Source: Squalus acanthias (lineage: Eukaryota). From it: 64,000 bases of DNA. Below the pieces are notes generated by a model that saw only the letters and a list, made by a program, of their open reading frames with translations, was not told the origin of the DNA and did not search any database. This document shows, in pieces, positions 1 to 25,422 of this stretch (position 1 is its first letter; the number at the start of each line of letters is the position of its first letter). Location of the stretch: assembly GCA_030390025.1 (NCBI GenBank), contig CM059431.1:94800001-94864000 (forward strand). The letters are read 5' to 3'. The position numbers and the translations under genes were made by a program.

Positions 1-1683
1 GATTAGTCAAGCACGATTTACTTTTTGTAAATCCATGTTGACTTTGTCCGATTCTGTCATTGTTTTTCAAGTGCTCAGCTATTACATCCTTTATAATGGA
101 CTCTAGCATTTTCCCCACTACCGATGTCAGGCTTACCGGTCTGTAATTGCCCGCTTTCTCTCTACCACCTTTTTGAATAGTGGGGTAACAATCCATGGGT
201 ACAGTTCCAGATTCCATCGAATGTTGGAAGATGATCAGCAATGCATCTACTATTCCTAGGGCCACTTCCTTAAGTACCCTATGATGTAGATTATCAGGTC
301 CTGGGGATTTATCGGCCTTCAATTTCCCTAACACCATTTCCCTGCAAATACTGATTTCTTTCAGTTCCTCCCTTTCATCAGACTGTATGTTCTCCAACAT
401 CTCTGGGAGGTTATTTGTGTCCTCCTTTGTGAAGACAGAACCAAAATATGCATTTAATTGGTCTGCCATTTCTTTGTTCCCCATTATAACTTCCCCCGCT
501 TCTGACTGCAAGGGACCTACACTTGATTTCACTAATCTTTTTCTCTTCACATATCTATAAAAGCTCTTAGTCAGTTATTTTCCCTGCAAGCTTACTTTCA
601 TATTCTATTTTCCCCTTCTTAATTAATCCCTTTGTCCTCCTTTGTTGAATCCTAAACCGCTCCCAATCCTCAGGGTTACCGCTTTTTCTGGCCAATTTAT
701 ATGCCCTCTCCTTGGATCTTATGCTATCCCTAATTTCCCTTGTTAGCCACGGTTGAGTCACCCTTTTTGTTTTATTCTTATGCCACACTGGGATGAACAA
801 ATTCTGTAGTTCATCCATGCAGTCTTTGAATGTTTGCCATTGCCTATCCACCGTCAACCCCTTGAGTGACATTCCCCAATCAATCCTACCCAATTCGCGC
901 CTCATACCATCGTAGTTTCCTTTATTTAAATTCAGGACCCTAGTCTCTGATTCTACTACTTCACTCTCCGTCCTAATGAAGAATTCGATCATATTATGAT
1001 CACTCTGACCCAAGGGGCCTTGTACAACAAGATTGCTAATTAATCCTTTCTCGTTACATAATACCCAGTCTAAGATGGCCTGATCTCTGGTTGGTTCCTC
1101 GACATATTGTTCCAGAAAACCATCCCGTAAACATTCTAGGAATTCCTCCTCCACAGTATTTTTACTAATTTGGTTAGCCCAATCTATATGTAAATTAAAG
1201 TCACCCATGATGACTGCTGTGCCCTTACTGCATGATTCTCTAATTTCCCTTTTAATGCCGTCCCCAACCTCCGTATTACTGTTTGGAGGTCTATATACCA
1301 CTCCCACTAACGTTTTCTGCCCCTTGTTATTTCTCAGTTCTACCCATACAGATTCCGCATCATCAGAGCTAATATCCTTCCTTTCAATTGTGTTAATCCC
1401 CTCTTTAACCAGCAATGCTACCCCACCTCCCTTTCTTTTTTGCCTATCTTTCCTAAATATTGAATACCCCTGGATGTTGAGTTCCCAGCCTTGGCCACCC
1501 TGGAGCCATGTTTCTGTAATCCCAATCAAATCGTATTCATTTACCTCTATTTGCGCAGCTAATTCATCCACCTTGTTCCGAATGCTCCTTGCATTAAGAC
1601 ACAAAGCCTTCAGGCTTGTTTTTTTAATGCTCTCAGACCTATATGAATTATTATTTACTGTGACCATGTTTGATTTAAACCGT
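1..1683 (-). mobile_element. CR1-type LINE ORF2 5' part (APE endonuclease and linker); runs off window start
   Basis: ORF 567-1694: LCLNARSIRNK, GITETWL, GVVYRPP, IMGDFN, LDWVL, SDHNMI endonuclease motifs; degenerate RT-proximal sequence continues toward position 1. Confidence 0.9.
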
Positions 1684-3665
1684 TGATGAAACAAAAAAAG
1701 AGGGTGTATGATGCATGTCAGGTGAATTCATCAAGGGAGAACCAGACCAAATACGATAAGTTGAGAGGGGAAGTGAAGATGAAAATAAGATTGACAAAGA
1801 GAGAATATGAGAGGGAACCCAAAAGGGAACATAAAAGGGAACCCAAAAATCTTCTACCGGCATGTCAACAGTAAGCGGGTAGTAAGAGGCCTATTAGCGA
1901 CATAGAAGGTGTTATATGCTTAGAGGTGCAGGGCAAGGCTAGAACACTCAATGAGTACTTTGTATCGGTAGTTACTAAGGAGGTGGCGGCTGACAAAATA
2001 TCAGTAGCTGTGGAAGAGGTAGAAGCAATGAAAGGGTGAAAATTGATAGACCGGATGTACGAGAAACGCTGGGTATGCTTAGAGTGGACAAGTCGCCTGG
2101 CCCAGATGGCTTGCATCCCAGATTGCTAAGGGAATTGGGGGAGGAGATAGCGGAAGGGCTTGCCATAATTTTCCAATCTTCCCTAGATGCGGGGGAGGTG
2201 CCTGAGGATTGGAAAGTGACAAATGTGACACCATTGTTCAAGAAAGGGTGTAAGGACAATCCTAGTAACTACAAGCTGGTCAGTTTAGCATCAGTGGTGG
2301 GTAAAGTTTTCGAAACAATAATCAAGGAAAAAATTAAAGGGCACTTGGAGAGGTTTAAGCTAATTAAGGAGAGCCAACACGATTTGTAAAAGGTAGATCA
2401 TGTTTGACTAATTAATTGAATTTTTTGATGAAGTAACAGGGAGGATCGATGAAGGGATGTTGTCTACATGGATTTTAGGAAGGTGTTTGACAAAGTACCA
2501 CATAGAAGGCTGGTTAACAAAATTGAGGCTCACGGAATAGGTGGGTCTGTGGCAGCTTGGATAAGGAATTGGCTTAAGGACAGAAAACAGCGAGTTGTGG
2601 TAAATGGCTGTTTTTCAGACTGGAGGATGGTAGACAGTGTTGTTCCCCAAGGGTCAGTGCTGGGGCCACTGCTTTTTTTTGATGTATATAAATGACCTGG
2701 ATATTGGAATACAAAGTAGAATTTCTAAATTTGCCGATGACCCCAAACTTGGGGGTGTGGCAAACAGTGAGGATGATACCAATCGACTGCAACAGGACAT
2801 AGAAAGGCTAGCAGAATGGGCAGACAAGTGGCAGATGGAATTTAATACAGTGGCAGATGGAATTTAATACAGAGAAGTGTGAGGTGATGCATTTTGGCAG
2901 AAGGAACATGGAGAGGCAAAATACACTTAATGGCACAGTTTTAAAGAGTGTGCAGGGACAGAGGGACCTGGGAGTTAATGTGCATAGGTACCTGAAGGTG
3001 GCGGGACATATTGAGAGAGTGGTTAACAAAGCGTATGGGATCTTGGGCTTCATAAATAGAGGTATTGAGTACAAAAGTAGAGAAGTTATGCTGAACCTTT
3101 ATAAAGCGCTGGTTAGGCCACAATTGGAGTATTGCATCCAGTTCTGGTCACCACACTTTAGGAAGGATGTGAAGGCCCTTGAGAGGGTGCAGAGGAGATT
3201 TACCAGAATGGTTCCGGGGATGGGGGATCTTGGCTAAAAGGACAGGTTGGAGAAGCTGGATTTGTTTTCGTTAGAGCAAAGGAGGTTGAGGGGTGATTTG
3301 ATAGAGGTGTACAAGATTATGACGGGTTTGGATAGGCTAGACGGGGAAAGGCTGTTCCCACTTGTTGATGGTACAAGGACTAGGGGACACAGATTTAAGG
3401 TTTTGGGCAAGAGATATAGGGGGATGTGAGAAAAAACTTTTTTACGCAGCAAGTGGTGAGGACCTGGAACTCGCTGCCGACAGAAGTGGTGGAAGCGGAA
3501 ACGCTCAAGGTTTTCAAGGGGAGACTAGATAGGCACTTGAGGGAAATAAACTTGCAGGGCTACGGGGATAGAGTGGGGGAATGGGACTGACTGGATTGCT
3601 CTACAGAGAGCCGGCGTGGACTCGATGGGCTGAATGGCCTCCTTCTGTGCCGTTATGACTCTATA
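1684..3665 (+). mobile_element. 5'-truncated, frameshifted CR1-type LINE (RT and 3' UTR)
   Basis: KSPGPDGLHPR, DFRKVFDKVPH, VPQGSVLGP, KFADD, LVRPQLEYCIQFWSP in successive frames; ends in tatgactctat tail. Confidence 0.92.
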
Positions 3666-3673
3666 ACACTAAC

Positions 3674-4290
3674 CTAGATTTCCTGTTGTTGTTCCCGCGG
3701 TTGTGTTTTATTCGTAGGGGAAGGGATTTTCGGGCGAACTTTCACTTTTAATTCTGTGGCAACTATGGTTCCGTTTACGTATTCTGATACATGATAAGTA
3801 ACACACATTTCGTGGCATAGTTCTCCCTCCTTTTCATCCAGCATCCATTGATAAGGGGGGTAATTTTCTGCACCGTACACGAACGCAGGAGAAAGGCTGT
3901 AAACCGGGAATTCGGACAATTTTTCAGTGGGCCTGGTCGAGGGTTTACGCATCCATATAAACCCTCATACTCTTGGCACCATCGTGGCCAACATAACATG
4001 GTTTCTCCATTGTCTTCCGATTGAGTTGGGCTCCCATTATGTGTCCAAGGATCCCCTATCTGGTGATAACTAGTATTGTCACCCACCTTTGCCTGAATGA
4101 ACCATACACGTGGCTGATTCATAGTCCCACTCTTACACTTTATACATATTCCCCTCCCTTCTTGGACCGTGTATGTGGTTACCCGTACTATTCCTGAACA
4201 ACTTGTGTCGCACGTACCCTTGATGGATCAGAGGCTAACCTCCCGAGCGATACCTAGGGGCGGAGTTACAGGGGCAATGGTAATCTGACT
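3674..4290 (-). pseudogene. Relic of a related retroviral env N-terminal (Ig-like) region
   Basis: Frame open from 4227 through ORF 3775-4122 reads YTVQEGRGICIKC...VWF...NGETMLCWPRWCQEYEGLYGC, matching provirus env ISVTVGKRICLTC...WWW...NGQLRVCWDKWWEPDEGIYVC; the next frame has YHVS...VATELKVKVRP versus WHVS...NATELITRP. Confidence 0.75.
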
Positions 4291-4529
4291 GTCATAACTT
4301 GAATTGCTGGATGCTTCCCCTTGTGTTGCTGCTGCCCTTTCGAGATCCACCAGTCCTGGTCCCACTTCTACCTGAACCAACTAAAGCTTCCCATGCAGTC
4401 ATGGGCACATCTGCCCTACCGCACGCTTCATCTTGCCCCCCTCCTAGTTTTCATTTAAATGCAGCCTCTGCAAGCATGGGGTCACCTTCCATACTTCTGG
4501 TGAGCTGTGCTATCCAATGGCCTGTATGA

Positions 4530-4995
4530 TAAGTCGTGAATTTCTCCAGCTCAAAATTAACTCCGTGGGACTGTCCTTGCATGGTTCCCTTACTACTTTT
4601 CTGAATTCAGCCAGTGCATCTCCAGCAAGAGCTTCTCTTTCCATCCCTGTACCGTCCCCTCCCAGGCTCCTCCAAGGATCTATACTTGACTCCCTCCTCT
4701 TCCTTATCTGTATGCTACCCATCGTTATCATCCTTGGCATGGGGTCAGCTTTCAAATGTGTGCTGACGACACCTAGCTCCACTTCGCCACCACTTCTCAA
4801 CTGCCTCCATGTTGTCCAGCATCAAGACTTAGATGAGTTACAACTTCCTCCAGCTCAACGCAGGGAAGAATTAAGCTGTCGTTTTCTGTCATAAACTCTG
4901 CTTCCTTGCTGCTGGCTCCATCTTCCTCCACGGCCATACTCTCAGCTGAATCAGAACGTGCACTAACTTGGTATCCTGTTTGACCCTCAGCCAAG
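4530..4995 (+). mobile_element. Degenerate L2-like LINE RT fragment
   Basis: Remnants of QGSILDSLLF and ADDT motifs. Confidence 0.55.
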
Positions 4996-5014
4996 CTTTA
5001 AAGAAAGAGAAAGA

Positions 5015-5205
5015 ACGAACTTGCATTTATATAGCGCCATGACCTCAGGACATCCCAAAGCGCTTTACAGTCACTGACATACTTTCGAGGTGTTGTCACT
5101 GTTGTAATGTAGGAAATGTGGCAGCCAATTTGCGCACAGCAAGCTCCCACAAACAGCAATGTGATAATGACCAGATCATCTGGTTTTTAGTGATGTTGGT
5201 TGAGG
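5015..5205 (-). mobile_element. SINE 3' fragment (same family as 5822-6245)
   Basis: Shares acttgcatttatat...cacagcaagctcccacaaacagcaatg with 5822-6010. Confidence 0.7.
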
Positions 5206-5821
5206 ACTAAATTTTGTAGTTCCTCTAACTACAGTCTTCTATGCATGCTCTCCCATTCACCCCACCTTTTCATGGCAGAGCCTTTAGCCACGTTTGTCAT
5301 AATCTCTGGAACTTCCTCTTCAGAGCTGTCTGTGCCTCCACTGCTTAAAAACCTTCTCAAAACCCATCTCTAACTACGCTTTTGGTCACTCCTCCTAATC
5401 TTTCACTATCTGGCTCGGCCTGAGTTTTCCCTAACCCTATTTTTGGGAATTTCTTTACATTAAAGCCACAATATAAATGGAAGTTGTTGTTGCACTCACT
5501 GACACCCCCATTAGCTCCCCACCCTCCAACACATTGACTTAAAATTCAATGTGCTTATTTTCAAATCACACCATACCCTTGCTCCTCCATAACTCTGCAA
5601 TCCAACCCCACAATATCCTAACCCTGAATATCTGAACTGCTGTAATGTCATAGACCCCTAAGTGCAGTATGGAGAGAAGGCCATGCAAAGAGAGGAAGCT
5701 GAAGGGTCAAAACTTGCTGACAGCACGAGCAGCTGGTGGGGCCTTGCACGCAGCGGACAGCTTCCCAGAAATTCGCAGTGCACTATCTGCAATTTAAATC
5801 AGTTGATACAAAATCATAAAG

Positions 5822-6245
5822 TAAGACTTGCATTTATATGGTGCCTTTCATGACCACTGGACGTCCCAAAGTGCTTCACAGCCAATGAGGTACTTTTGAA
5901 GTGTAGTCACTGTTGTAATGTAGGAAACGCGACAGCCAATTTGTGCACAGCAAGCTCCCACAAACAGCAATGTCATAATGACTAGATAATCTGTTTTAGT
6001 GATGTTGATTGAGGGATAAATATTGGCCAGGACACCGGCAATAACTCCCCAACTCCTCTTCGAAATAGTGTCATAGGATCTTTTACGTCCACCTGAGAGA
6101 GCAGACAGGGCCTCGGTTTAACGTCTTATCCAAAAGACGGCACCTCCAACAGTGCAGCACTCCCTCAGCACTGCACTGGAGTGTCAGCCTAGATTTTTGT
6201 GCTCAAGTCCCTGGAGTGGGACTTGAACCCACAACCTTCTGACTG
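5822..6245 (-). mobile_element. tRNA-derived SINE with Deu-like central domain (SacSINE1/AmnSINE-like)
   Basis: Minus-strand B-box-like ggttcaagtccc head; central gacgttaaaccgaggccc segment recalled as typical of Deu SINEs. Confidence 0.65.
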
Positions 6246-8075
6246 TGGATTAACTACCAGGGCTGTGCAGTCGTAATTTTCTGATTGCATACTACCGGGA
6301 CGGAAGATCAGGAGCTGCACATCTTCGATTTCTCGATGTGCACTCCAGGCCAGTGATGTTCTGCACCAGGAGCTGCAATCAGATCATTTGCCCTGAAGCT
6401 TTTGGGAATGCTTTTTTTGTTGTCACCAGAGTCCAATCAGCATATTTAAAAAAGGACCCCACTGTCTTCTGGTGGATGTCCTGCTAAAGGGATTAGGTTT
6501 AATATCAGGACCCGCGGGAGGACAGCAGGATTAACTACCGTCGGGTGTGGGGTTAAAGTTCCCACCACGTCTTTCCCTTTTTACAATCTGATTTTTCTCC
6601 TTGCTTCTCAACCTGCTTCTCACAACCCCCAATCATATTTTCGGCTACTGATATCCATTTTATCCTTTTGAGTGTTTCCATAGAAGCAGAGATTTTTGTG
6701 ATCTGCAAAAAGTTTGCCTTCTACTTTATAGCTTTTGTGAGAGTTCTCTGCTCCTCCACACCTCAAGACAGCACAATATTGAGGGACCGCTGTCACTTGG
6801 TGAGTGTCCAACTCTTCAAATGGGAGCAAAACACACAGTTATTATTACACAATTTAATTATTATACCTGCATTTTTTTTCCTGCGCCACCAAAAAGAGAG
6901 TGATCAGGTAACAAAAGCAGAGCTGTTAATTGATATTTAAGATGTATATTCAATATTTGGACCTTTAAACATACTGCTGCCAAGTGTGTCAGGAAATTGG
7001 AGATTCCACTGACATTCCCAGCAGTCCCCGTGCACTCAGTGGGGGTCATTTTGAATTAGGGTTGCCAACTCTGGTTGGAGGCATTTTTGGAGCTTTGATC
7101 ACGTGAGATCCTGACCATGTGACTGCTGATCATGTGACATCAGATCACATGACTTCTACAAATGTTATTGCATTTACCTTGTAGAGGTTGGAGCCCCTGT
7201 AGTTATATATTTTTGCTCGTGATTTTGTGCCTGCAGCTGTTGTGTGAAAAGTTCTGAGAACCAGGAATCCAACCATGAGCAAGTGAATAGGGGAAACCAA
7301 GGGTGGGGGAAGAGGGGAATCCGAGGGTGGGGAAGAGGGAAAACTGAACATGGAGGAAGAGTCGAAACCAAGGTCGGGGAAGAGGGAAGACCAAAGGTGG
7401 GGGAGCGAGAGGTGGAAGGAACTTTGATTTCACCAGTAACTCACTGAAATTGCACTGATAGCTAATAGTAATACTGGTAACATTCAGACTCTCCTCATAA
7501 CCAACAGTAATACAATAACTCACTGTAATAGGTGTAACACTCCAATATCCTACCTGTAACTAGTAGTAATCCAATAACCTGCTGATATTTACCCTGAAAC
7601 CATAGCCAGAAATGCCCTGCACTGCAGTGTGTGTGATCAGGCTCCCCAGTCGGCCACTTTCTACAGGCCCATCTCTCTCCCCATCTCCTTGGACTCTGGT
7701 TCCATGTGAAGATGACAACTCTGAACTGGGAACCTCAATCAGAGCTGATCTGTACTTGGAATTCACACATCAAAACCGGCCAGTGCAGACCGACCTGAAC
7801 CAAACCGAGAGATCGCACATAGGACAGCGGGCTCAGTTTGGGGCACTTCTCACAATGCACACTGTCCTAAACTCAGCTGAGCACCAAGATTTCTAAACCA
7901 CCCCCTGGGCTTGCACTCAATAAAGCAGAGTTTTCATAGAATGAGGGAAATTACAGCTCAAGAGGAGGCCATTCGTCCCCCAGTGCTGACGCTCTCTCCT
8001 GTAACCCAATTCCTCCTGATCCTTTTCTGCTCCTCTTTTTCAAATAATTACCCCATACCGTTTATATAAAGTTTT

Positions 8076-8710
8076 TGGGGGGGGAAATTGAGTCACGCCC
8101 CTTTTGGGGCACTAACTTTGCCGGGGCGCTACTTTTAGCGCCCCGAAAAAATTATCACCCCCACCGCCGAAATTGAGTGGTAGGTGCCCCAAGAGGGAAG
8201 CGTCCTGCCTCCCTCTTGGGGCGCTGCGAGGGAATATCACGGCGCCACGTCATGCCGCGGTACTGCAGGCCTTCCTCCCCTTCTTAAAGGGGAGGGGACT
8301 TGTGCAGTGCGACCCGGGGTCCAGCTGGGCCACCAGGGATCGGAGCGCCGGCAAAAGAGGGGGCTGGGTCAGGAGGCCGGGGATGGCAGAGGGGGCAGGT
8401 GCTGGCAGGCGGCCAGCAACAAAAATGGCCGCCCGGCACCTCGCCTTTAATTAGCGCTGCCCCGGCCGCAGGTAAGCCCCCCCTGACCCCATCGGACATA
8501 GCGTCCGGCGGTAAGTCGGGGCGCTACCGAAGATCGCGAGCGGGACGCCGTGCACGGCGATGACGCTACCGGTTACCGCTGCCACGAACCTCCCGCTGAA
8601 TTTCACGGAAGGCGCTGGTGGCGCCGCGCCTGGGCGTTTGTTGCTTTGCGCAACGTTATCGCCCTATGAGGGCGCTAACGGGTGGCGCAAAACAACCAAA
8701 TTTTTCCCCC
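8076..8710 (+). mobile_element. GC-rich MITE-like repeat (putative non-autonomous Harbinger), copy 1
   Basis: gggggggaaatt...aaatttttccccc termini; homologous to 30246-30836 and 61615-62355. Confidence 0.65.
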
Positions 8711-8944
8711 TTAGTCTCTTCCTTAATAGCTACATGCAGTGAAGGCTCCCACGGTCTAGTAGCCGTCATTTCAAGAGCTTGCTCCTCCTTTCCCCCTGTT
8801 TCCTCCAGTGAGAATCCTTGATTCCCATTCCCTGGTTCCCCATTCGTCCACAAGTGGAAACAATCTTTCACTATTTACCCACAGTAAGGTCTCCAGGTTT
8901 CACTGGCTCCCCCTCCATTCCCCAGACCCCATTTCCCAGGCTCC

Positions 8945-9446
8945 ATCTCTCTCCCCGAGCCCTTATTCCTAAGTCTCCAGCTCTCCCCGAGCCCTCATTC
9001 CCGTTTCCAGCTCTCCCCGAGCCCCCATTCCTCAGTCTCCAACTCTCCCCGAGCCCCCATTCCTCAGTCTCCAACTCTCCCCGAGCCCCCATTCCTCAGT
9101 CTCCAACTCTCCCCGAGCCCTCATTCCTCAGTCTCCAACTCTCCCCGAGCCCTCATTCCTCAGTCTCCAGCTCTCCCCGAGCCCTCATTCCCGTCTCCAA
9201 CTCTCCCCGAGCCCCCATTCCTCAGTCTCCAACTGTCCCCGAGCCCTTATTCCCGTCTCCAACTCTCCCCGAGCCCTCATTCCTCAGTCTCCAACTCTCC
9301 CCGAGCCCTCATTCCTCAGTCTCCAACTCTCCCCGAGCCCTCATTCCCGTCTCCAACTCTCCCCGAGCCCCCATTCCTCAGACTCCAACTCTCCCGAGCC
9401 CCCATTCCTCAGTCTCCAACTCTCCCCGAGCACTCATTCCTCAGTC
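8945..9446 (+). repeat. Minisatellite with ~29-32 bp unit (ctctccccgagcccccattcctcagtctccaa)
   Basis: Directly visible tandem units. Confidence 0.9.
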
Positions 9447-10413
9447 TTGGGCTGTTCCCGAGACCCCAGGCTCCTCTCCGAGCCGGAATTCCCCATCTCT
9501 CTCTCCAACCACTCTCGAGTCCCCAGATTGCTGCAACCCCCACCACCACCCCCCGCGATTGCCCACACTCCGGTTGCCGAGGCGGGCTGCGGGAGACCTC
9601 TGCCGCAGTCTGTTCTCCGATCCACAGCACCTCCACCACACTGAAGGGATCTGACGGTCCTGGCAGTCATTTCAAATTAATCCCTCACCTTGGAAAAACC
9701 ATCGCAAAACGTCTACACTATATTGTTAATCAAATCATTTATTCAATGTGCTAACCAGGCAGTTGTATCGTTAGCTTGGTAAAAAGACATGCAGTTAAAT
9801 CTAGTTAATAATCAATAAGGCAGTTTGAATATGCTTTCAGCTCTGTAGTGTAATATAAGATGCCACACGCGCCTTTTTCGATCGTAAACCGGGCACACTC
9901 CGTCGTGCTAGCCCTTCCACAACCCAAGAGCCTGGGAGGGTGTCTTGATCGCCTTTATTGGGTTGAGTCCATGGAAACTTGAGAGAAAGGGGATACCTTC
10001 AAGGAGTTCCGTGACTTTCATCCATAGCTGATCCAACGTGGATCCACTTTGTTGAGCCCAGACCTCCGGTGCTTTACGCAGCACCACGCAAAATGGATCT
10101 GTCACTGTGACGTTACTCAGCACTCTGCCCCAGCATGTGGATTTCCCCTGGATGACATCTCTCTCCGGTACAGCATTATTGTCACCAAGTGGGGGGGGGG
10201 GGGGGGGCATCGGGGGGTCAGGTTGGTTTACCTGGGAATAGGACGTTATTGCATCGCCACCACCGCCAAACAGATGTTCAGTACAGGGAACCCAACCTTT
10301 ATGAGAAAATCATGTGATCAGATGTCATGTGATTGGGCATCACATAGTCAGGTGTCATGTGATCAGAATGATCAAACCTCCAGGCATGCCCCCAACCAGA
10401 GTTGGCAACCGTA

Positions 10414-11613
10414 TCCTGACTGTGCTCTGTGCCCTCCATACGAGCTCCTGACTGTGCTCTCTGCCGTCCATACTAGCTCCTGACTGTACTCTGGGCCCTG
10501 CATACCAGCTCCTGACTGTGCTCTGGGCCCTCCATACTAGCTCCTGACTGTGCTCTGGGCCCTCCATACTAGCTCCTGACTGTGCTCTGTGCCCTCCATA
10601 CTAGCTCCTGACTGCTCTGGGCCCTCCATACTAGCTCCTGACTATGCTCTGGGCCCTCCATACCAGCTCCTGACTGTGCTCAGGGCCCTCCATACCAGCT
10701 CCTGACTGTGCTCTGGGCCCTCTACACTAGCTCCTGACTGTGCTCTGGGCCCTCTACACTAGCTCCTGACTGTGCTCTGTGCCCTCCATACTAGCTCCTG
10801 ACTGCTCTGGGCCCTCCATACTAGCTCCTGACTATGCTCAGGGCCCTCCATACCAGCTCCTGACTGTGCTCAGGGCCCTCCATACCAGCTCCTGACTGTG
10901 CTCTGGGCCCTCCATACCAGCTCCTGACTGTGCTCTGGGCCCTCTACACTAGCTCCTGACTGTGCTCTGGGCCCTCTACACTAGCTCCTGACTGTGATCT
11001 GGGCCCTCCACACTAGCTCCTGACTGTGCTCTGGGCCCTCCACACTAGCTCCTGACTGTGCTCTGGGCCCTCTACACTAGCTCCTGACTGCTCTGGGCCC
11101 TCTACACTAGCTCCTGACTGCTCTGGGCCCTCTACACTAGCTCCTGACTGTGCTCTGGGCCCTCCACACTAGCTCTTGACTGTGCTCTGCGCCCTCCGTA
11201 CTAGCTCTTGACTGTGCTCTGGGCCTTCCATACTCGCTCCAGACTGTGCTCTGGGCCCTCCGTACTAGCTCTTGACTGTGCTCTGGGCCTTCCATACTCG
11301 CTCCTGACTGTGCTCTGGGCCCTCCATACTAGCTCCTGACTGTGCTCTGGGCCCTCCATACTAGCTCCTGACTGTGCTCTGGGCCCTCCATACTAGCTCC
11401 TGACTGTGCTCTGGGCCCTCCATACTCGCTCCTGACTGTGCTCTGGGCCCTCCATACTAGCTCCTGACTGTGCTCTGGACCCTCCATACTAGCTCCTGAC
11501 TGTGCTCTGGTCCCTCCATACTAGCTCCTGACTGTGCTCTTGGCTCTCTACACTAGCTCCTGACTGTGCTCTGGGCCCTCCATACTAGCTCCTGACTGTG
11601 CTCTGGGCCCTCC
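10414..11613 (+). repeat. 32-bp satellite (ctcctgactgtgctctgggccctccatactag), left part, interrupted by the provirus
   Basis: ~37 tandem units; the array resumes in register at 24274. Confidence 0.95.
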
Positions 11614-13272: not shown

Positions 13273-13284
13273 GTCCCTCCTGTT
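13273..13284 (-). other. Polypurine tract
   Basis: AACAGGAGGGAC immediately 5' of the 3' LTR on the minus strand. Confidence 0.65.
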
Positions 13285-13726
13285 GATGCGAATAACTCCG
13301 CTTATCGTATCAAAAACATTGTGGTGAGCAATATTATCTCGATTCTCCATATCTAAAAATTCCCATAACTTAAAACTATCTAGGGTCTCCGTGTCGTCCT
13401 TATTTCCCAGGAAAATTACATTCTTATAACACCGTAGGCAGCATTTGCCTTTAACTTACACCGCGTGTATTTCCTTCCAGGTGTAACCAGGCCGATGCCT
13501 CTCGCACCACCTGCATATGCATATTTTTTATTCAAGGAAAAAGAAAACAAAAACAACCAAACAAACCAAACAATCATATTCAACAACACCAAATCAAAAT
13601 AATCAAAAAACAACTCTTAAACATGTAGAGTTCCAAACTTAATTACAGTTTCTGAGAAAAATCACGATCAATGACAACAATTCCGAGGCGCACGTGCAAA
13701 AACTGGAGTGACGCCATTTTGGCCGT

Positions 13727-16047
13727 TTACGCGGTGCTTTCTTCGTGCACGCGCACGTAACGCTCTCGCCACTCTCCCGTGTTTTCGTTCTTGGTGAGGC
13801 GTTTGCCTCTCTTACAATGCACGACCAATAAGTATATCGCAATAAACACTTGGCATACAACTAAAATGTGGGAGGCTATTCTAATCCAGGAAGGCACTTC
13901 AATGTTGGTGAACAGGTCCCACCACGGTGGGATTACTATGTCTAGAATTTCTGTCCCTATCTCGACAGTCTTTTGTTCTAGGGTGTAAAAATGTTTCTGC
14001 GAAACCGCAACGGCTTTCAAAAGCTTGGTGAGGTGTTCAGGGAGAGGGGGAATGAGGTATCCGAAATGCGCGACGAATCGCTGCAAGTCGGTAAAATTCT
14101 CTTTTACTGTTAGATGAACAGTGGATGGTTCAGGGATCGGGACAATTCGCTGCTGTGCCACTTGAACTTCAGCCCTGGGTTTAAAACAGAAACTGCTGTC
14201 ACTCACCGGACACCGGCTGCGGTTTCCATGCTGGTAGTGTTGCGCTGCAGTGGTAACGCAATATGTTCCACCCCCTATGTATGCCACCTGCGGAGGCACA
14301 TGATCTTGTGCCATTGCCTCCATGGTGCAATTCATGGGCTTGGCGCCAGCCGTTCTGAACCCGCACTGTGGTGATAAAAAGGCATTCAAGTGCTGGGGAC
14401 ACAGGATTATGTGTGCTCCCCTGCCACGACAACCAGAGAGATCTGTACCTGTCATCGTTTGCTCCCAGCGGATGACGTAAGGTGGAACCGCTGCATAGCG
14501 AATGTGGGCTCCCCCCTGAATGACACCAATGTTCTCTACCCGATATACCGGGGCGGGCTTTGCTGTGTCGCCCAAAACCGGCATACGTAAAACTACCCCC
14601 ACAATGGTGTGGTTTGATCGTCCGCAGTCCACGGGGACTGGGTATGCTTCTGAAGCTAGCCTGAGCTGGCACGGGCTTAATGCGTTCTGAAAAGGGTGGA
14701 GCGCCTGCAGGTGTTTGTTACTTATCCAGGACGGGACCAAACCTTGTTTTAAATCCTCCAAATTACTGCGGCCCTCGCCCAGTAACCACGCCCCGTAAAG
14801 CACGCACACCTCGTTCTGCGCAGCCTGATCGGACGCATTCCGATCTTCCCTGATCAGGGCATTCACTGTATCTGCATGTTTCTCCAGCTCAGCTATAATT
14901 TCTTTTAAATGGAGAGTCATGGGCTGGTCCTCATGTAACCCAGACCCAACCACCTTATTTTCGTCTGTAAGAATATTCTTTAATTGTGTTTTCAAACCAT
15001 TAATCTGGGTCTGCAGCTCCACGCTGTGTAGAGCGTTGACCACAGATGTACCTGTATTGAAAGCAGTGAACATGTCGTTCACAACACCCCTTCTTTGTCT
15101 CCCCACCTGACCCAAAACTTCATGTGGTGCGGTGTACAAACTTGTTTTATCAATTTCCGCGAAATCGAACTCATAAAATTGCCTAAACATCTTGGTCAAC
15201 AGGACCTGATATAACTGTTCCGTCTCTTTGGGGCACCACTCCGGCAACCGCACCTCGGTGAGGTTTAAAATCACTGAGGCCACCGCATAATGTACCCCCT
15301 GAAATAGTAGCTGGTCTGTAGGGACCAGTACCAAACCATTCCTGGGTCCCTTACCGGTTTCAGGGCACCCTTCTTCCTTAGCTAGAACCACCGGAATTGT
15401 GGGCGGGGCCTTGCGTGGGCGCGTAATGAGTTCAGTGGCGTTTACCGGGATCGGAGAGTATGGGGCCCCGCACCCCCTGGTGCTTACATGCCACCTCATC
15501 CCCTGCCCGTTATCCTGCCACTGATTCACGAAAAATATGGATATGCCTTTGGGGCAAACGTGCTTTGACCCCCACATACATACATAGATTCCCTCATCCG
15601 GTTCCCACCATTTGTCCCAACAGACTCTCAATTGTCCGTTAGTCCCCGTAATTGTCCGATGGGTAGTATCCTCATATTCCTGCTCAGCTTTCGTAGCCAC
15701 CACCATCGGCTCAATGGGACCTTCCCATTGCATGTCAAACAAATCCTTTTGCCGACGGTGACGCTGATTCTGGGTGCAATGATCCTCACTCTGGGGCACA
15801 GTAAAGAAGTCTCTTTGTAGGCAAATCCCGATGCACTGGAGTATTCCGTCGAATTCGTTCCCAGCCATCCCGGCCACCTTCCCTTGTGGAAATAAGTGGC
15901 GGTCTCCTCAGCCTTTCGCTTCCCGGTCCCATCCGTCGCGATGGGGGCCGTGTCCCCGGAGCAACCAAACACCACGACATCCTTGCTGCGGCCTCGATAG
16001 GCCAATCCACATCCAAATGCCGCGAGCACTACCAGAATCCGTTCCAT
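13727..16047 (-). pseudogene. env: env: signal peptide + Ig-like domain + class-I fusion glycoprotein resembling Mononegavirales F; one inferred frameshift near 15690
   Basis: MERILVVLAAFGCGLAY signal at 16047; furin site RQRR/GVVNDMFTAF at 15089-15100; heptad ELQTQINGLKTQLKNIL; Cys-rich ectodomain; second heptad; TM segment IASHILVVCQVFIAIYLLVV; short tail. ORF 13727-15877 covers the downstream frame. Confidence 0.85.
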
Positions 16048-16054
16048 CCTTCCT

Positions 16055-16085
16055 TGGTTCCTGTGATCAGATAGAATGAGGTAGC
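16055..16085 (-). promoter_or_regulatory. Candidate env splice acceptor
   Basis: Minus strand ctcattctatctgatcacag/G, 13 nt upstream of the signal-peptide ATG. Confidence 0.55.
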
Positions 16086-16886
16086 CAGCCTCCCAAGAGT
16101 CTCTGGCTTTTGTGAAGGGTGAGCGGGTCCCCTGACCTCGCCTCACGTAAGAAGACATGTGCGCTGGATAGATCTTTTAGCTAAACCTAATCTTAAACTC
16201 CCATCATTTATCTTTTACTTATTAAAATTTTAACTATCAAACTTCAAACTTAAAACTTATAAACTATAAAACTTATAACTTATCTTATAAAACTGTACAG
16301 CGCCGCCCATTCCCAGAGCAGCCTACTCAAATTCTGCGGTTGCTGCCACAGGCTTCTCCCAACGGTGGGAGGGCGCTGACCCCTCCTTTTGATCTGCCGC
16401 AGCCTGTGGCTGCTGCGCTGGGACTGGGATCTCCCTGGGCTGTTTTAGCCTTGACCCTACGCCTTGGGACACTCTGGGGACTTACCCACATCTTTCTGGG
16501 CTGGGGTTTCCGACTTGACCTACGGGGAACTACCGGGGGCAGGACCGACGGACCGGGTTTCGAGACTTCCACCGTGGCGACCTGTGGTCCCACCACAGTC
16601 GCTGGCTCCGCCCCCCCCTGACTCCGCCTCCCTGAACTCGGGATCTGCAGCCTCTGGCACTGCCCTACTTGGCCCAGTAGGCGGCCCTTTACTCGCAGTC
16701 CCTACCTCCCTCGAGGGCAAGACTTCCAAGGCGGACGGATTGGGTTCTGAGGCTTCCATTGCCACGTCCTGTGGTCCCACCACAGCCACTGGCCCCGCCT
16801 CCCCTAACTCCGCCCCCCTGATTTCGGGACCTGCAGCTTCTGTCTCCACCCTGTGTGGATCTCCATCTGCAGTCCCTATCTTCCCT

Positions 16887-19800
16887 TTACCTGAATCGGG
16901 CCCTTTCGTCCTCCGATTCCAGCTCCTCTTCGCTTGTGTCACTATCTTGGTCGAGCTCCTCGAACTCTTCCTCATCTGACTCCCAACCCCAATAAAGGAT
17001 CCTACATTTTGCTAGGATGTCCTCTCCCCTGATGCAGGCTGCTTTGCCTGCCTGTGTGCCCTGTGGCCCTACCCGGGGCTGCGAGTCCCCACTCGCAGGT
17101 TTGGCCCCTGTGGTAGGCCCTTGTGCACCCGGCTTATACAGTTTGCACTGATTTACGTGGAACCACTTAGTGCGCCGAGGTACTTTTACGGCGTATACCA
17201 TGGGACTCGCCTTATCTACAATGCTGTAGGGTCCCATATACAGTGGTTCCAGACTCCCTACTCTGGCATAGTTTCTGACCATGACCTGGTCTCCTACTTC
17301 CCACTCCTGCTTCTTGCGGTGTTCCAGCAACAGGCGATTGCCCTGATGCTGTCTTCCCATGTTCCCAGCCGCCTGCTCATAAACCTGCTTCAGGCGCTCC
17401 AAGAGGGTCTGGACGAACTTGTCCCTGCTTACCTCTTGGAGCTGACCCTCAGTGAGCACCGGCGCTAGTACATGGGTGGGGGTTCGCATGATCCTTCCAG
17501 TCATCACCTCGTGCGGGGAATACCCCGTACCTTTCGACTGACTGGCCCGGATCCCCATGAGGACTAGAGGCAGAACCTCCGCCCATTTTTGGGGCGAGTT
17601 CATAGTCTCTTTCCTCAATTTCTCCTTCAGGGTCCGGTTCATGCGTTCAACAATCCCGGATGACTGGGGATTGTGCGCTACGTGCCACTTCCCTTCAATG
17701 CCCAAAAGCATGAGGGTGTTCTGCATCACCTGGCCGGTGAAATGACTCCCTTGGTCTGACTCCACGAAATGGGGGAGTCCCCACCGCGAGAACACTTCCC
17801 GGACCAAGATTTTTGCAGTACCCAGCGCCGTAACTGTTCTACAGGGGAAGGCTTCCACCCATTTGGAAAACACATCCACCAAGACGAGGCAGTATTTGTA
17901 GCCTCCCTGGGTGGTGGGCAGGGGCCCTATATAGTCGATCTGTATCGACTGCCATGGTCCCTCCACCCTCCTGATGTGCCCCATGGGCACTTTCCTTTTC
18001 TGGGGGTCTGGGTTGTTTGCAGCGCACACGAGACAGCTAGCACAGAACTCGCGGACCTGCTCCCTGAGTCCCGGCCACCATCCCGCCTACTCTACCCGTT
18101 GCCAGGTAACCTCGGGCCCGGGGTGCCCTGCCCCCGGCCCCTCATGAGCCAACTGGAGGAATTCCCTCCTGTGCTGCTGCGGCACAACCCACTGCTCCTC
18201 GCAGAACAGCATGCCTTCCTTAAGGGAGAGGGTTGCCATACTGTACGGACCCTCTACCTGCTTGCCCTCAGCAATGGTTCTGAGAACTGCTTTTAGGGCG
18301 GGATCCTGGTTCTGGACGGTCTTAAGGTCTAGGGGCAATGCTACCCTGGTGTTCCCGGGATTCCCGTCCCTGCCTTGGATCGCTGCCACGGGTCTGGGCC
18401 CATAGGGGTCCCAGAAAATGCCGTTGCGGGCACCCTCCCTGGCGAGCGCATCCGCCTGCTGGTTGCCCTCCCCACGGGGCTCTGTGGAGGAGTGAGCCTT
18501 CACCTTATGGATGAAAATCTCCCCTTCCTCCCCTACTGCTGCTAGGATCTTCTCCAGCAAGGGCTTCACCGTTAAAGGTCGCCCGTCCGCGGAGGTGTAT
18601 CCACGGCGGGACCAAATGGCCAGGTATTCCGTACACGAATTGCATGTGAACATACTGTCCGAGCAAATCGTCTATGGGGTTGGGAAAGTTTCTGGGTGGG
18701 TAACGATGTACGCCACCGCAGACAGCTCAGCCTGCTGCGCGCTCATGGTGCTGGGGAGCTTAATCGCCAGGGCAAAGTTTGCCGCAGGGTCATAAACTCC
18801 ACACCCTGTGAGTCGTTCGCCAGCGGATACTGTGCTGGACCCATCAACATAAATTTCGCGCCCTGTGGGATGTATCCCGGCCCGTAAACCTATGTTGACT
18901 TCCCACACCCCCTCCACCGAACACTGGTGGGCTGTACCGGGGTATACCAAATTGGCCGCAAGCCTGGGCTCGCAAAGACCTTTAACCCTAAGATCCATCT
19001 GGGAAAGGAGAAGGGTCCAGCGCGCAATTCGAGCGCTGCTTACGGTCCCATCCTTAATCCTCCCATCTAGAAGCATCTTAGTTGGTGTGTGATGGGTGAG
19101 GAGAGTGATGGGAGAGAGCCCTGTGAAGATCGCTGATCTTTTCACAGCCCAATGCGTGGCTAAAAGATGCCTTTCGCAATTGGAGAAACTCCTCTCCACA
19201 TCGGTCAACACCCTGGACAAATAGACAACCGGCCTCAGCTTGCCGTGGCGCTCTTGGAGCAGCACAGCGCTCAAGCTGTCTCCGCTGGCAGCTACCTCCA
19301 GGAAAAATTCCTTCCCCCCATCTATGGCCCCTAAAGCTGGCGCGGTCTGCAAATCCCTTTTTAACTTCTCGAAGGCTGCCTGGCAGCCCTCGTCCCAAGA
19401 CCACTCCACTCCCTTATGGAGGAGTCGGAGCAGCGGCGCCGCTGTGGCCGCATAGTCTTCGATAAAATCTCTGCAGTAACCGGTCAGTCCCAAAAAGGAC
19501 CTCACACCCCTTATGGTGTTGGGAATCGGTAACTCCTGCACCGACTCCCTCCTAGCCTTATCTATGGCTCTTTCCCCAGCGCGAATGGTCAGCCCCAGGA
19601 ATTTTACTTCCTGCTGACCGATACGTGCTTTCTTAGGGTTTACTTTAAAACCCTTTCTCGCTAGCAGCTCCAATAACTCGGCCAGTAGTGGTCCATGCTC
19701 CTCCCTTGAATCCGTAAATAGGAGCAAATCATCCACGTACTGCACTATCTGATTGGGCTGACTAAACTCCTTTAAACTTCCTGCCATACACTAATGGAAA

Positions 19801-20804
19801 ATACTGGGGCTGTTGTGGAAACCCTGTGGCAGACAGCTCCATGTGTACTGTTGTCCTTTGAAAGTAAAGGCAAACTTGTACTGGTCCTCTCGCCGCAGCG
19901 GGATGGACCAAAAACCGTTCGAGATATCCAGCACCGTGAACGTGGTCGCGGACGCTGGGATGCTCCCTATTAGGTCAGCAACTGCTGCTACCGTGGGCGC
20001 GCAGGCGGGGATGTTACTGTTAAGGACTCTGTAGTCCACCGTGGCCCTCCACGAATTATCCGGCTTCCTAACCGGCCATAATGGGGAGTTCACGTGTGTG
20101 GCTATCGGCCTCAACACGCCCTGCTGCACCAAGGAGGACATTGCTGCCTCCATATCGGGTTCCGCTTCTTTGGGGAAGTTATACTGCTTTTGGGGCCGGG
20201 TCATGGGGTCCCCATCTACGCTGACCTCAAACCCGGTAACCCTCCCACAATCGTGCTTGTGGGTTGCAAACACGTGCATATTATCTGACACGTACGTTTG
20301 CATGTCCGTTGGGACATCCGCGACCATAAGCCCGAGGTCGTAACCTCCGGATGGCTTCATGGTACACAGGGCCCCTTTACCTTCCTCCCCCGGAATTACC
20401 ACTACCTTGCCTTTTCCATCCTTGGCTCCCCAGAGACAGTGATTCCTAAGGTCCACGAGGATCCCGTGCTCCGATAGGAGATCTGATCCGAGGATGCCTC
20501 TCCCACCCCCCTCTTGCCATTTCATCAGTATGCACTTCCACGTGGTGTGGAGTGCTCCTAAATGAATGGAGAGCGGAATGGAGAACGCGCCAGCCTGCTC
20601 TTTTCCCGTGAACCCCGCTAATGTGTATGGGACCTTGGTAGACAGTGGTGAGTCAAAGGGGCTATCCGTATGAATCACGGTGCATGAAGCTCCCGTGTCC
20701 AACAAATAACTACCCTTCTACTTCTCTACCTCCATCTCCACCAGGGGTCGCTTCCACGCATCATAGCTGAGCGGACACAGGTAGACGGGCTGTGCGGGCT
20801 CTAG
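16887..20804 (-). pseudogene. pol: pol (protease, RT, degenerate RNase H/tether, RNase H, integrase) in one frame with four premature TAG stops
   Basis: LLDTGASC; VLDISNGFW, CLPQGFHNSP, YVDD; tether FFLEVAAS...NCERHLLA; RNase H IYVDGSS, SAQQAELSAV, HKVKAH, GNQQADALAR; IN HHCC, QIDYIGP, ESDQGSHF, SGIVERMN, GPY. Stops at 20718, 19791, 18672, 18087. Confidence 0.92.
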
Positions 20805-22628
20805 TCATTGGGTATTGTTGGACGGGGCTGCGGCATCTGCAGGGCCGGTAGCGACTGCCACCCTTCCTTGCGAAATCATGAGGGTGCGCATGGCTCCCAA
20901 CATTGATTCGATCGCATCGGGATGGATAGGCACACCAGCTCCCCTATCAGAGACAGGCGCCTGGGCTCGGACTGCGGGATTTTTATCCCTGGACTCCTTC
21001 CAAGGGTTCCTGCAGTTCTTGCGCCAGTGCCCTGTCTTTCCGCATCCGAAACAAGCATTACTGGCTTGTGGGACGCGATTTCCCTCCTGATGCCACTCCT
21101 TTTGAGCCGGGGCTGTGGGTCGTGCCTCATGCACCTTTCCCTTAAGGGGACGCGCTCCCGTACTCCTGGTATTATGGTACCCTACCGTGAGGTGGTTTAG
21201 GACCGACTCCTCTGTTGTGGCGGGGTTAGTGGGATCAAACCACGCTTTGGCCTGCTCCCTCACGGCTGGCAAGCTGTTGGCTACTATACATCTGAGCCAG
21301 TGAGCTAAACCAACGCCGTTTAAATCAATGCGCTCGGGCGCGCCTGGGCAACTACGCTGATAGACAGGCCACAGCCTGTCGGCGAAAACCTTCGGGGGTT
21401 CTCCCTCCATCTGCATAGTCTGTCCCAATCTCACAAACGGACCTTCATTGTCCGCCCCCAACACCTCTAGGACCTCATCTCTTAACTCCTCATAGGTCCT
21501 ATTACCCCTTTTACTCGCGTCTGAGAGACACTGGAGGATCGAGCTGTCTAAGGAGAACAGCAGCATTTTTGCCCTTTCCCCATCGTCGCAGCCGTTAATG
21601 GCTGCAGTCTGCTCTACCTCCCTGAAATGTACGGAAGGGTCGTCTGACTCGGACAGCTTCCGTACGTGGCTGATCATAGCCCTCAGCTGGTGTGCGCTGT
21701 GAGGCAACACAAGCTGGTTGAGGAGATCCCCCGCTTCCCCACCGTCTCCGTTCGGGCCCCTCTTGATACCTGTAAGCGGGCACAATTGTCCTGGCTTCAC
21801 TACTACTTCAGGGGGCTGTACTACCTCGGGGACCTCTTCCTCTACTTCTACCACTTCCTCCCTTACCCAGGTTGCCGAATAGCTGGGTGGCGCGGAGGGC
21901 ACAGTGGCAAATACCTCCTCTGCTTTGTTCGGTGGGGATTTCTGGAATTCCCCACCCACCGGCGGCTGGTGTGCTGACGGGCTGATAAGGCACACCATGC
22001 CGTGCGCTTTATTCAGGGCCTCTTTAAGGTTCCTTATCTCTCTTTGGCAGACGCTGTGATCGGCCCCCTCATGTTTATCCTCGAGGGCCATCTTATATGC
22101 CGCCCATACCCCCTTTAAGCTCTCTTCCTGGGCTTTTATTTGAGCAGCCAGGCAGGCACATCGTTCCCTTATTCTGCCCTCATTTAATTTTGCCTCAGTG
22201 ACCTGGCACTCGAGGTAATCTATTTTCGCCTCATGGTGGTTGGCGACTAACTGGCGTTCTTGATGCAACGCATTTAAAGACGCGATGAGCTGCTGCCCCC
22301 CCGCGACCTTCTCGTCCATTTCCACCTCTAAACCCTTGATCTGAGCTGCCTGCGCTATGATGACCTGGTCCGAAAGCTGGACTTGTCTTTTTTAACACAT
22401 CAGCCAGACCGCTTTCTCGACAGATTTTTTATGTTCCTTGCTACCTGTCCACCCCACGGCTGCCTCTCGTGGACGCTTATCCACCAGCAGGTCACTTATC
22501 CATCTCTTAGTCAAATTCACTTTTCCAAAAACATAATCGGCTATCCTCTCTTCCATAACATTTCGCCCATTCATACCAGGGTCTAACACGTTATTTTCTC
22601 GCTGCCAGTGTCCCTTCGTAGTCGCCAT
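20805..22628 (-). pseudogene. gag: gag (N-terminal coiled coil, capsid-like region, single CCHC knuckle) with one in-frame TAA
   Basis: ORFs 22392-22628 and 20805-22325 share a frame, separated by TAA at 22392-22394; CFGCGKTGHWRKNC zinc knuckle. Confidence 0.85.
22610..22627 (-). other. Primer binding site, tRNA-Arg(TCG)-like
   Basis: TGGCGACTACGAAGGGAC 5 nt downstream of the 5' LTR; 17/18 complementary to a recalled vertebrate tRNA-Arg(TCG) 3' end, GTCCCTTCGTGGTCGCCA. Confidence 0.8.
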
Positions 22629-24404: not shown

Positions 24405-24760
24405 AACTTACTAAGGAACATAGGACCAGGAATAGGCGATTCAGCCCCTCGAGCCTGTTGCACCATTCAATTAAATCTTGACTGATTTTCATCTTAACTC
24501 CTTTTACCCGCAGGTGGAAGAAGGACAAGTGGAGGAAGATGAAACTAATCTTCAAACAAGTCGACTGCAAAGCAGACAAGAGCAGGTGCCTGACTGAAAA
24601 AAAAGCCCAGTAATTCTCCTCCAGATCCGTCCAAACATCTTTAACGGGGCGTCAAACACCAGCCCTCTGTGTGAAGTCTCATGAACTCTGCTTCTAGCAG
24701 CCCACGAGAACTGCAGCCTTTAAATTTCACTCCACAGCAGCAACCCTCCCCCGGGGGGGG

Positions 24761-25260: not shown

Positions 25261-25422
25261 GGGGGGAGGAGGAAGGGGAGGGGGTGTAAAGGGGAGGGGG
25301 GTGACGGGGAGGGGAGGGGGGCGGGGGGGGAGGGAATTGGTGGGGGGTGTGGGTGGGGGGAGGGAGGACAGGGGACGGGGGCGGATCAGGTTTGTTTACC
25401 TGGGAATAGGGCGTTATTGCAT

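Follow-up and report, generated by a model that had tools for sequence, protein, structure and literature searches.

A decayed env fragment in the genome of Squalus acanthias and a probable Ig-like domain shared by two endogenous retrovirus lineages

The stretch of Squalus acanthias DNA considered here (assembly GCA_030390025.1, contig CM059431.1, positions 94,800,001 to 94,864,000; referred to as the window, 64,000 nucleotides at its full length) carries on its minus strand an endogenous retrovirus (ERV) provirus at 13.7–22.4 kb and, close to its left end, a short segment resembling the 5′ part of a retroviral env gene, referred to here as the relic. Such a locus raises the question of whether the two env sequences encode the same domain, whether this domain is of the immunoglobulin (Ig) type, and whether it was inherited within a retroviral family or captured only once from a host. 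An earlier note, made from the letters of this DNA, proposed that the Ig-bearing env is an old and diversified family trait, kept under protein-level constraint. The relic is very likely a dead env fragment of an ERV lineage related to the provirus and distinct from it. It has no present activity, and it is of value for comparison, as evidence that the provirus env received its Ig-like domain by inheritance within a diversified ERV family. The results support the view of the Ig-like domain as a shared and constrained trait of this family, being neither a one-off capture nor a host exon.

Relationship of the relic to the provirus env and to its own family

The resemblance between the relic and the provirus domain is confirmed as real by comparison of the protein sequences. 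Residues 1–105 of the relic, aligned by the Smith-Waterman method with a natural uninterrupted copy of the provirus family, reached a score of 94, against 30.8 ± 5.4 (maximum 65) for the shuffled sequences; this is a z of 11.8, and a score as high was obtained in 0 of 2000 shuffles. The same relationship is visible between profiles, one built from 15 relic-family sequences (A1) and the other from 8 provirus-family sequences (A2). The two are joined by hhalign in one collinear alignment of 75 columns, which runs from the C-x2-C strand through the Y-x-C strand and thus over both halves of the domain (probability 96%, E 4.8e-9). When 20 sequences from the two families are aligned together, W42, G74, C79, W80 and C93 are invariant, and C28, C31, T68, W83 and G89 are nearly invariant. 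The Ig-like region is only 19–24% identical in protein between the two ERV lineages, and a relic-family env aligns with the provirus env with 29% identity over 336 aa (E 1.3e-29). At the DNA level, no similarity between the relic and the 5′ part of the provirus env was found at E≤1e-8, and the best match in blastn with a word size of 7 and E≤10 had an E of 1.2. The earlier reading of a match to both halves of the provirus domain, with a common extra Cys pair (C28/C79) and a common C-W-x2-W motif but no obvious nucleotide similarity, is borne out by these comparisons.

The results obtained with the window's own interrupted sequences are weaker, and those for the first half weigh against this relationship. 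The second half of the relic aligned with the window's protein P0002 with a z of 8.1 (0 of 2000 shuffles), and the first half reached a z of 4.6 (3 of 2000) with the tail of P0003, the upstream env open reading frame (ORF), and a weak 2.7 (45 of 2000) with the whole of P0003. Similarly, BLASTP between the window's own pieces recovered a match of 22 residues in the second half, around C-W-x2-W...E-G-x-Y-x-C (27.7 bits, E 2e-4), and left the first half without a match (E 0.69). The first half is therefore convincing only in combination with the second.

The uninterrupted reading of the provirus domain follows from its close relatives. Compared with four natural uninterrupted copies, to which it is 94.6–96.1% identical over 800 bases, the provirus lacks 31 bases at about position 15670, and this gap sits between the Trp strand and the next strands of the Ig-like domain. 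The relic had been thought to validate such a repair of the provirus frameshift. This validation is unneeded, because the near-identical natural copies settle the uninterrupted reading far more directly. Copies of the provirus family are very numerous and appear to be young. With the upstream env ORF as query, the genome searches, which cover the 3.7-Gb assembly, gave 6544 first-look candidates and at least 150 matches of 90–95% identity. For 127 of the 150 matches listed, a hand count found an open frame of more than 232 aa, which therefore reads through the site of the provirus break, and for 50 a frame of at least 800 aa.

The relic, described in the earlier note as an independent relic and an orphan segment, is alone only locally. 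A genome search with its 150-aa ORF gave at least 152 matches, with identities between about 40% and 99% (150 were scored out of 4901 first-look candidates). The sister copies L002, L003, L005 and L008 carry the Ig-like segment directly 3′ of a retroviral integrase and in the same orientation, and in the copy in the left flank, 18.6 kb away, reverse transcriptase (RT), RNase H and integrase are found upstream of the env segment. Signal peptides are present in copies L021, L023 and L024. In the uninterrupted copies of the family, a single frame continues through the variable region, a conserved ...ELKV-x-PK segment, a Pro-rich linker and a conserved block to an R-x-R-R cleavage site and a fusion peptide; copies L027–L029 lead from the Ig-like core to R-R-R-R/G and the fusion peptide. 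The relic is thereby shown to encode the part of the surface subunit that begins just after the signal peptide, comprising the Ig-like beta-sandwich core of about 100 residues, an insert, the last strand and the start of the linker. To this the frame of the intact relatives is shown to add the cleavage site, the fusion peptide, a long ectodomain with heptad repeats and a Cys-rich part, and the membrane anchor, the last of these being seen in the provirus env.

The comparison of the pol genes supports a clear distinction between the relic lineage and the provirus lineage, the domain being common to both. Their integrases are 62–67% and their RT 55–72% identical in protein, and the integrase DNA is about 66–68% identical. 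The domain is also common to many sub-lineages of the relic's family. The adjacency to integrase, the cleavage site and fusion peptide in frame, the env homology and the divergent pol are the reasons for which the relic is assigned to the 5′ part of env of a related, distinct ERV lineage.

Fold of the domain and its relatives in other genomes

The domain is probably an Ig-like sandwich, as indicated by structure models and by the placement of its conserved residues. The canonical Ig positions are those of C31, W42 and C93 in the relic, with little or no variation among the 20 sequences of both families. The sub-threshold alignments to PDB sequences place the second Cys of C-x2-C on the B-strand Cys, the Trp on the C-strand Trp and G-x-Y-x-C on the ...YYC of Ig domains, the Cys and Trp being paired with those of V-kappa. 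These searches were carried out with phmmer and hmmsearch, and none of the matches is significant for the shark families. The provirus env had two sub-threshold matches, both antibody variable (V) domains (E 0.73–0.8); the relic profile had a single one, the Ig domain of MLCK (E 0.29); and 13 of the 14 matches of the provirus-family profile were Ig domains (E 0.46–1.3).

The fold was compared with the use of AlphaFold models of natural copies. The relic-family model, of an uninterrupted copy of 171 aa with a 20-row alignment, has a mean predicted local distance difference test (pLDDT) score of 50.8, with 55–82 in the core blocks and less than 50 in the insert. In this model, the ...FKVK... segment, homologous to the predicted last strand of the relic, forms the final strand of the sandwich (residues 160–169, pLDDT 61–67), and the fold alignments extend to residue 171. 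At least 500 PDB chains were matched by Foldseek at E≤0.001, led by antibody light-chain V domains (VL), the V domain of shark IgNAR (2ywy) and shark UrIg2 (9dmx), with target-normalised template modelling (TM) scores of 0.56–0.65 for single V domains. VIA-align, which is independent of Foldseek, gave Z up to 10.7 (root-mean-square deviation, rmsd, 2.2 over 88 residues) and 305 of 48161 chains at Z≥8; nearly all of the 50 rows listed belong to the Ig superfamily (IgSF) by title, with an rmsd of 2.2–3.1 over 84–98 residues. For the provirus family, a natural copy of 227 aa was modelled with 24 rows (mean pLDDT 56.6, core blocks 72–90). Foldseek again placed IgNAR V and VL domains first, with E from 2.9e-4 and target-normalised TM of 0.55–0.69 for single V-domain chains. 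The VIA-align matches were Ig-type domains by title, with Z of 8.3–7.1, within the tool's stated background of 7–8, where by its own note a match may reflect no more than a common arrangement. Thus, three of the four fold searches match Ig domains of the V/I type, and the fourth points in the same direction within background, all on models of moderate confidence. In the model, the extra Cys pair C28/C79 lies on the neighbouring B and E strands, where it could form a second disulfide.

The relatives of this env in other genomes extend the comparison. A word-indexed search with the provirus env returned 4 proteins, from skate and sawshark, with 56–72% identity, and an exhaustive profile search over 1.84 billion representatives returned 27 matches at E≤0.001. 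For the 10 proteins that were looked up among the latter, the named sources are Rhinoraja longicauda (3 proteins), Rhincodon typus, Mustelus asterias, Pristiophorus japonicus, Chiloscyllium punctatum, Chiloscyllium plagiosum and the frog Pelodytes ibericus (1 each), and two matches come from metagenome contigs. The Ig-like part is covered by 7 of the matching proteins, all of which belong to the provirus type. None of them is of the relic's sub-type, which is therefore seen in this genome only. As a side observation, the Pristiophorus japonicus gene models P0007 and P0008, annotated as the host proteins 'Niban 1-like' and 'zinc finger protein ZFP2-like', bear ERV env segments at one end and are probably chimeric gene models.

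The protein of the bamboo shark Chiloscyllium punctatum (GCC29952.1, UniRef100_A0A401SHR0) is a full-length env-like protein of 739 aa, found with a profile E of 4.1e-5, and is named 'Ig-like domain-containing protein' in UniRef, a label that is automatic. It shares the env superfamily with the shark ERV envs, is very diverged and lacks the Cys of C-W-x2-W; the extra Cys pair is therefore not universal in the wider family. Its N-terminal domain aligned with the relic-family core in hhalign (71%, E 3.7e-5, 80 columns), and its N-terminal part matched antibody V domains at E 0.0045, with all 60 rows listed (of 61) Ig-type by name. For the N-terminal part of the frog env, 44 of 45 matches are Ig-type by name, and antibody V domains are reached at E 0.0039. 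No match was given by hhalign between the relic family and the frog env P0021 (E 0.73), and for this reason the link of the frog protein to the shark domain is carried only by its own V-domain matches and by homology of the fusion part.

These data have to be weighed against the possibility that the domain, although homologous between the lineages, is a generic viral beta-sandwich outside the IgSF. The matches to Ig domains would then stem from the common arrangement of strands and from a tendency of models with shallow alignments to adopt an Ig-like shape. Some results are in agreement with such an explanation and weigh against the Ig assignment. No Pfam family was reached at E≤1 by the relic ORFs or the provirus env, and the best match of six other env-type proteins was Ig_3 with E 0.34 and 0.58 (11–12 bits against a cut-off of 30 bits). 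As no curated Ig model was reached, the domain is called Ig-like for its fold and is not placed in any Pfam Ig family. All PDB sequence matches of the two shark families have E above 0.27, both models are of moderate to low mean confidence and were built on shallow alignments (20 and 24 rows) drawn mostly from one genome, and the Z of the provirus family does not leave the background range. The generic explanation is nevertheless unlikely, given that the hallmarks of the domain (B-strand Cys, C-strand Trp and F-strand acidic-x-G-x-Y-x-C) align with those of V domains, that the relic-family model reaches a VIA-align Z of 10.7, with 305 chains at Z≥8, and that the distant family members reach E of about 0.004 with antibody V domains by sequence alone; the name given by UniRef to the bamboo-shark protein is in line with this.

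The Ig-like domain contains a variable insert, placed after the Y-x-C strand and before the final one, which has 60–65 residues and three strongly diverged forms in the relic's family and about 45 residues in the provirus family. Its position is that of the complementarity-determining region 3 (CDR3) of a V domain. In the living virus, the Ig-like domain may have served as the outward-facing attachment module of Env, and the insert as the part diversifying between the sub-lineages. Contact of the insert with a receptor may be proposed from its position and variability.

Descent of the domain and history of the relic

The constraint on the domain was estimated from the ratio of nonsynonymous to synonymous substitution (dN/dS), calculated by the Nei-Gojobori method (NG86) for each of the 105 pairs that the 15 A1 sequences form, over 69–76 core codons. 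The pairs with fewer than 60 shared codons, a failed calculation or dS≥1.5 were dropped, and 53 were kept. The median for the 51 pairs at dS 0.05–1.5 is 0.25 (range 0.09–0.93), and the pairs with dS above 0.5 lie between 0.09 and 0.33. The two closest pairs (dS<0.05) have ratios of 2.27 and 1.24. Such a pattern is expected if purifying selection in the replicating virus acted between the sub-lineages and was followed by recent neutral decay. The pairs are non-independent, the choice of copies favoured open frames, and an approximate method was applied to a short region, all of which weighs against reading the ratios too firmly. Taken with the two lineages and the many sub-lineages, the low ratios of the deeper pairs uphold the earlier proposal of a diversified trait under protein-level constraint; the word Ig in that proposal holds with less certainty, as it depends on models of moderate confidence and on sub-threshold matches.

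The shared domain could also have arisen by exchange, through recombination between co-infecting ERVs or separate captures of host V domains, without vertical inheritance from an ancestor of the env family. Retroviral env modules are known to recombine, and an example of such behavior is hinted at by copy L028 (1004–1447). Compared with L029, L031, L023, L025 and L027, it is a mosaic, its core being of the type of one sub-lineage and its insert of the type of a second, and this combination points to recombination between env sub-lineages. Exchange as the source of the domain itself is improbable, in view of the collinearity of the N-terminal half of env between the two lineages and the similar divergence of the Ig-like part and of the segment before the cleavage site. 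Separate capture is also opposed by the profile search, in which no host IgSF protein was present among the 17 of 27 matches examined and all 7 proteins covering the Ig-like part are pieces of ERV env. As a consequence of this absence, no donor of the domain can be named. Vertical inheritance within the env family remains the preferred reading.

In favour of an exon of a host IgSF gene, or a processed copy of it, that only resembles the provirus domain, it can be cited that many of the genome matches span only residues 1–107 or 26–101 of the query, which is exon-like at first sight. These short matches stop at the frame change or at the variable insert, and the copies examined lie directly after integrase and continue in frame into the env cleavage site and fusion peptide, with the sister copy 18.6 kb away adding RT and RNase H upstream. 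This retroviral context, found on the flanks of the copies examined, excludes a spliced host Ig exon for practical purposes, and such an origin is very improbable. A chance likeness of two stretches rich in Cys and Trp, for which the short BLASTP match between the window's own pieces and the silence of the first half could be cited, is scarcely credible against the shuffling test, the profile alignment and the homology of the flanking env.

The relic is therefore treated here as a fragment of env, the features of which are collected in Table 1 together with those of its surroundings. The residues quoted in the earlier note are present and run in one frame of the minus strand to ...PLKNCP. The element is real, and its extent had been given as 4290..3674; the homologous span found by blastn is 676 bases long (window 4346..3671), all alignments with other copies beginning at 4346 or 4344 and finishing between 3671 and 3729. 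A single frame accounts for the 105 codons of the core and not for the whole element, which contains an in-frame stop before the core and a frame change after it. The tblastn of a natural 277-aa copy onto the relic gives three pieces (E 1e-80). The start of the signal peptide is missing, and the stretch at 4231..4346 aligns with the part that follows the signal peptide in copies L023, L024 and L026. In the core, C-x2-C lies at 4146..4135, the Trp of VWF at 4107..4099, CWPRW at 3993..3979 and EGLYGC at 3966..3949. Copies L022 and L008 are uninterrupted at the point of the frame change, and the stop at 3676..3674 adjoins the junction of the relic with the neighbouring repeat. The DNA of the relic is 96–97% identical to that of its sister copy L002 and 80–89% identical to six other copies, L003–L008 (blastn).

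Table 1. Positions of the relic, its immediate neighbours and the provirus in the window
Feature	Position	Strand	Basis or remark
Whole relic, 5′ portion of env, cut at both ends	3671..4346	-	blastn and tblastn
Stretch linking signal peptide to Ig-like core, in the frame of the core	4231..4346	-	ORF 4380..4228; natural copies L023, L024, L026
In-frame TGA stop within the env frame	4228..4230	-	sense codon here in all aligned natural copies
Ig-like core, one frame, 105 codons	3913..4227	-	within ORF 4227..3775; ends ...PLKNCP
Frame change between ORF 4227..3775 and ORF 3964..3674, in which the gene continues	3910..3916	-	two-frame overlap of tblastn pieces
Second frame: variable insert after F strand, predicted G strand (3766..3728), start of Pro-rich linker	3677..3916	-	ORF 3964..3674
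Non-LTR retrotransposon (LINE) fragment, its 3′ end abutting the relic in place of the remaining env	1994..3671	+	also in sister copy
Deletion junction	4346..4347	.	sister copy has 4342 extra bases exactly here (megablast)
Provirus gag	22391..20805	-	ORF
Provirus pro-pol	20717..16887	-	Pfam RVT_1, RNase H, rve
Provirus env, two overlapping frames	16176..15628 and 15907..13727	-	ORFs
Provirus env Ig-like region, over two frames, change at ~15670	15398..15810	-	comparison partner

The history of the locus can be traced from its neighbours. The sequence that abuts the relic is assigned to a long interspersed element (LINE), a retrotransposon without long terminal repeats (LTR), because it is similar in DNA (about 70% identity) to a copy at 41097–42514 whose ORF 40715–42154 matches RVT_1 (E 3.8e-34); the short ORFs of the flanking fragment and the ORF to the right of the junction had no Pfam match. 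By megablast of window 1–14000 against the left flank, window 1602–10207 is duplicated 18.6 kb leftward (G000:C7:94783063-94794987; L044/L045), with 96–99% identity in the inner blocks and 86–89% in the outer ones. The extra bases of the sister copy encode the integrase, RNase H and part of the RT of the relic's ERV, as found by tblastn of the provirus Pol ORFs against the flank. No remainder of this ERV was found inside the window, where the only other matches of the family are to the integrase region of the provirus (66–68% DNA identity). The likely order of events is an insertion of the LINE, the segmental duplication and then a 4.3-kb deletion in the window's copy. The LINE would have taken the place of the 3′ part of env, the region would have been duplicated after this event, the deletion would have removed the adjoining pol, and the stop codon and frame change would have accumulated in the relic. 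A further, third fragment resembling env lies immediately beyond the left end of the window (L045, G000:C7:94795410-94796461, minus strand); it is 29–40% identical to residues 154–484 of the provirus env (tblastn E 1e-43) and appears to belong to yet another lineage.

Other features of the window lie apart from the relic. Another LTR-type element occupies 33222–37193 (minus strand), with an uninterrupted ORF of 1153 aa after one of 169 aa and RT/integrase 29–31% identical to those of the provirus. The ORFs at 44487–45499 (minus) and 57314–57724 (plus) could be remnants of Harbinger/PIF-type transposases, which they resemble. A run of N (an assembly gap) lies at about 24720–25290 between Pro-rich low-complexity flanks. 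The Pro/Ser-rich and Gly/Arg-rich open frames at 8812–9754 and 54540–55617 are like tandem repeats, are open in several frames simultaneously and are probably simple repeat DNA.

The env design and its comparison with known systems

The relic is ordinary genomic debris, and its use is that of a witness. Together with its relatives, it bears witness to an antibody-like domain at the tip of Env that was inherited and selected in a very abundant group of ERVs, here and in other cartilaginous fishes. The combination of an Ig V-like module with a non-canonical, long fusion subunit bears on the way in which retroviruses acquired and remodelled their entry proteins, and also on the extent to which viruses borrowed the adhesion and immune folds of their hosts. 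This Env design looks undescribed. In the main texts of the literature searched, no Env of this kind was found described as carrying an Ig-like domain. The words 'shark', 'immunoglobulin' and 'Ig-like' are absent from the papers examined by term; 'cartilaginous' is absent from the lokiretrovirus papers, and 'Chondrichthyes' from the preprint. A broader proposal can be made only tentatively. The shark ERVs would belong to a large clade of vertebrate ERVs that is undescribed so far, plentiful in cartilaginous fishes and perhaps extending to amphibians, in which Env consists of an N-terminal Ig V-like attachment domain, with an extra disulfide and a hypervariable CDR3-like insert, joined to a long fusion subunit of the F type. 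The domain would then go back to a V domain of the host IgSF, captured once in ancient times, with the insert as a determinant of host range.

The closest described architecture is that of the lokiretrovirus Env. According to the main text of Wang and Han (2020, PMC7947760), this Env has a signal peptide, a basic cleavage site, a fusion peptide, a coiled coil and a membrane anchor, and its fusion subunit is much longer than the canonical retroviral one and similar to the F protein of paramyxoviruses. The hosts named there are lampreys, bony fishes, amphibians and reptiles, and the words 'cartilaginous', 'shark' and 'immunoglobulin' are absent from that main text. The shark ERV envs resemble this architecture in their layout. 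The two differ in that similarity to F0 is undetectable in the sequences of the shark ERV envs. The Pfam family PF00523 (fusion glycoprotein F0) was not matched in 7 env-type proteins, and a profile of 8 envs found no F protein among the PDB sequences, its best matches being unrelated (E≥0.27). A protein-language-model look-up of the provirus env gave Gypsy/Baculo_F and paramyxovirus Fusion_gly as the nearest clusters (scores 0.91–0.93) with low recognition, and the likeness to F proteins is therefore a lead only.

The second comparison concerns the Ig-like domain itself. With antibody VL, shark IgNAR V and other V/I-set domains it shares the two-sheet sandwich, over about 90–100 aligned residues at an rmsd of 2.2–3.3 Å, and the B-strand Cys, C-strand Trp and F-strand G-x-Y-x-C at matching positions. 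It differs from them in its low identity (12–20%), the extra Cys pair (C28, C79), the Trp-rich C-W-x2-W and the insert of 45–65 residues in the place where CDR3 would lie. In addition, it is encoded by a viral gene without a constant domain.

The use of such a scaffold for attachment has parallels among viral entry proteins. An Ig-like core is present in the receptor-binding domain of the gammaretroviral surface subunit and in herpes simplex gD, where the sandwich serves as a scaffold and variable loops or extensions contact the receptor. By analogy, this arrangement may serve as a working model for the env domain of the shark ERVs, in which the sandwich would carry the variable insert. These viruses would differ from the two known systems in the partner of the domain, as the fusion subunit of the shark ERVs is of a different and much longer type.

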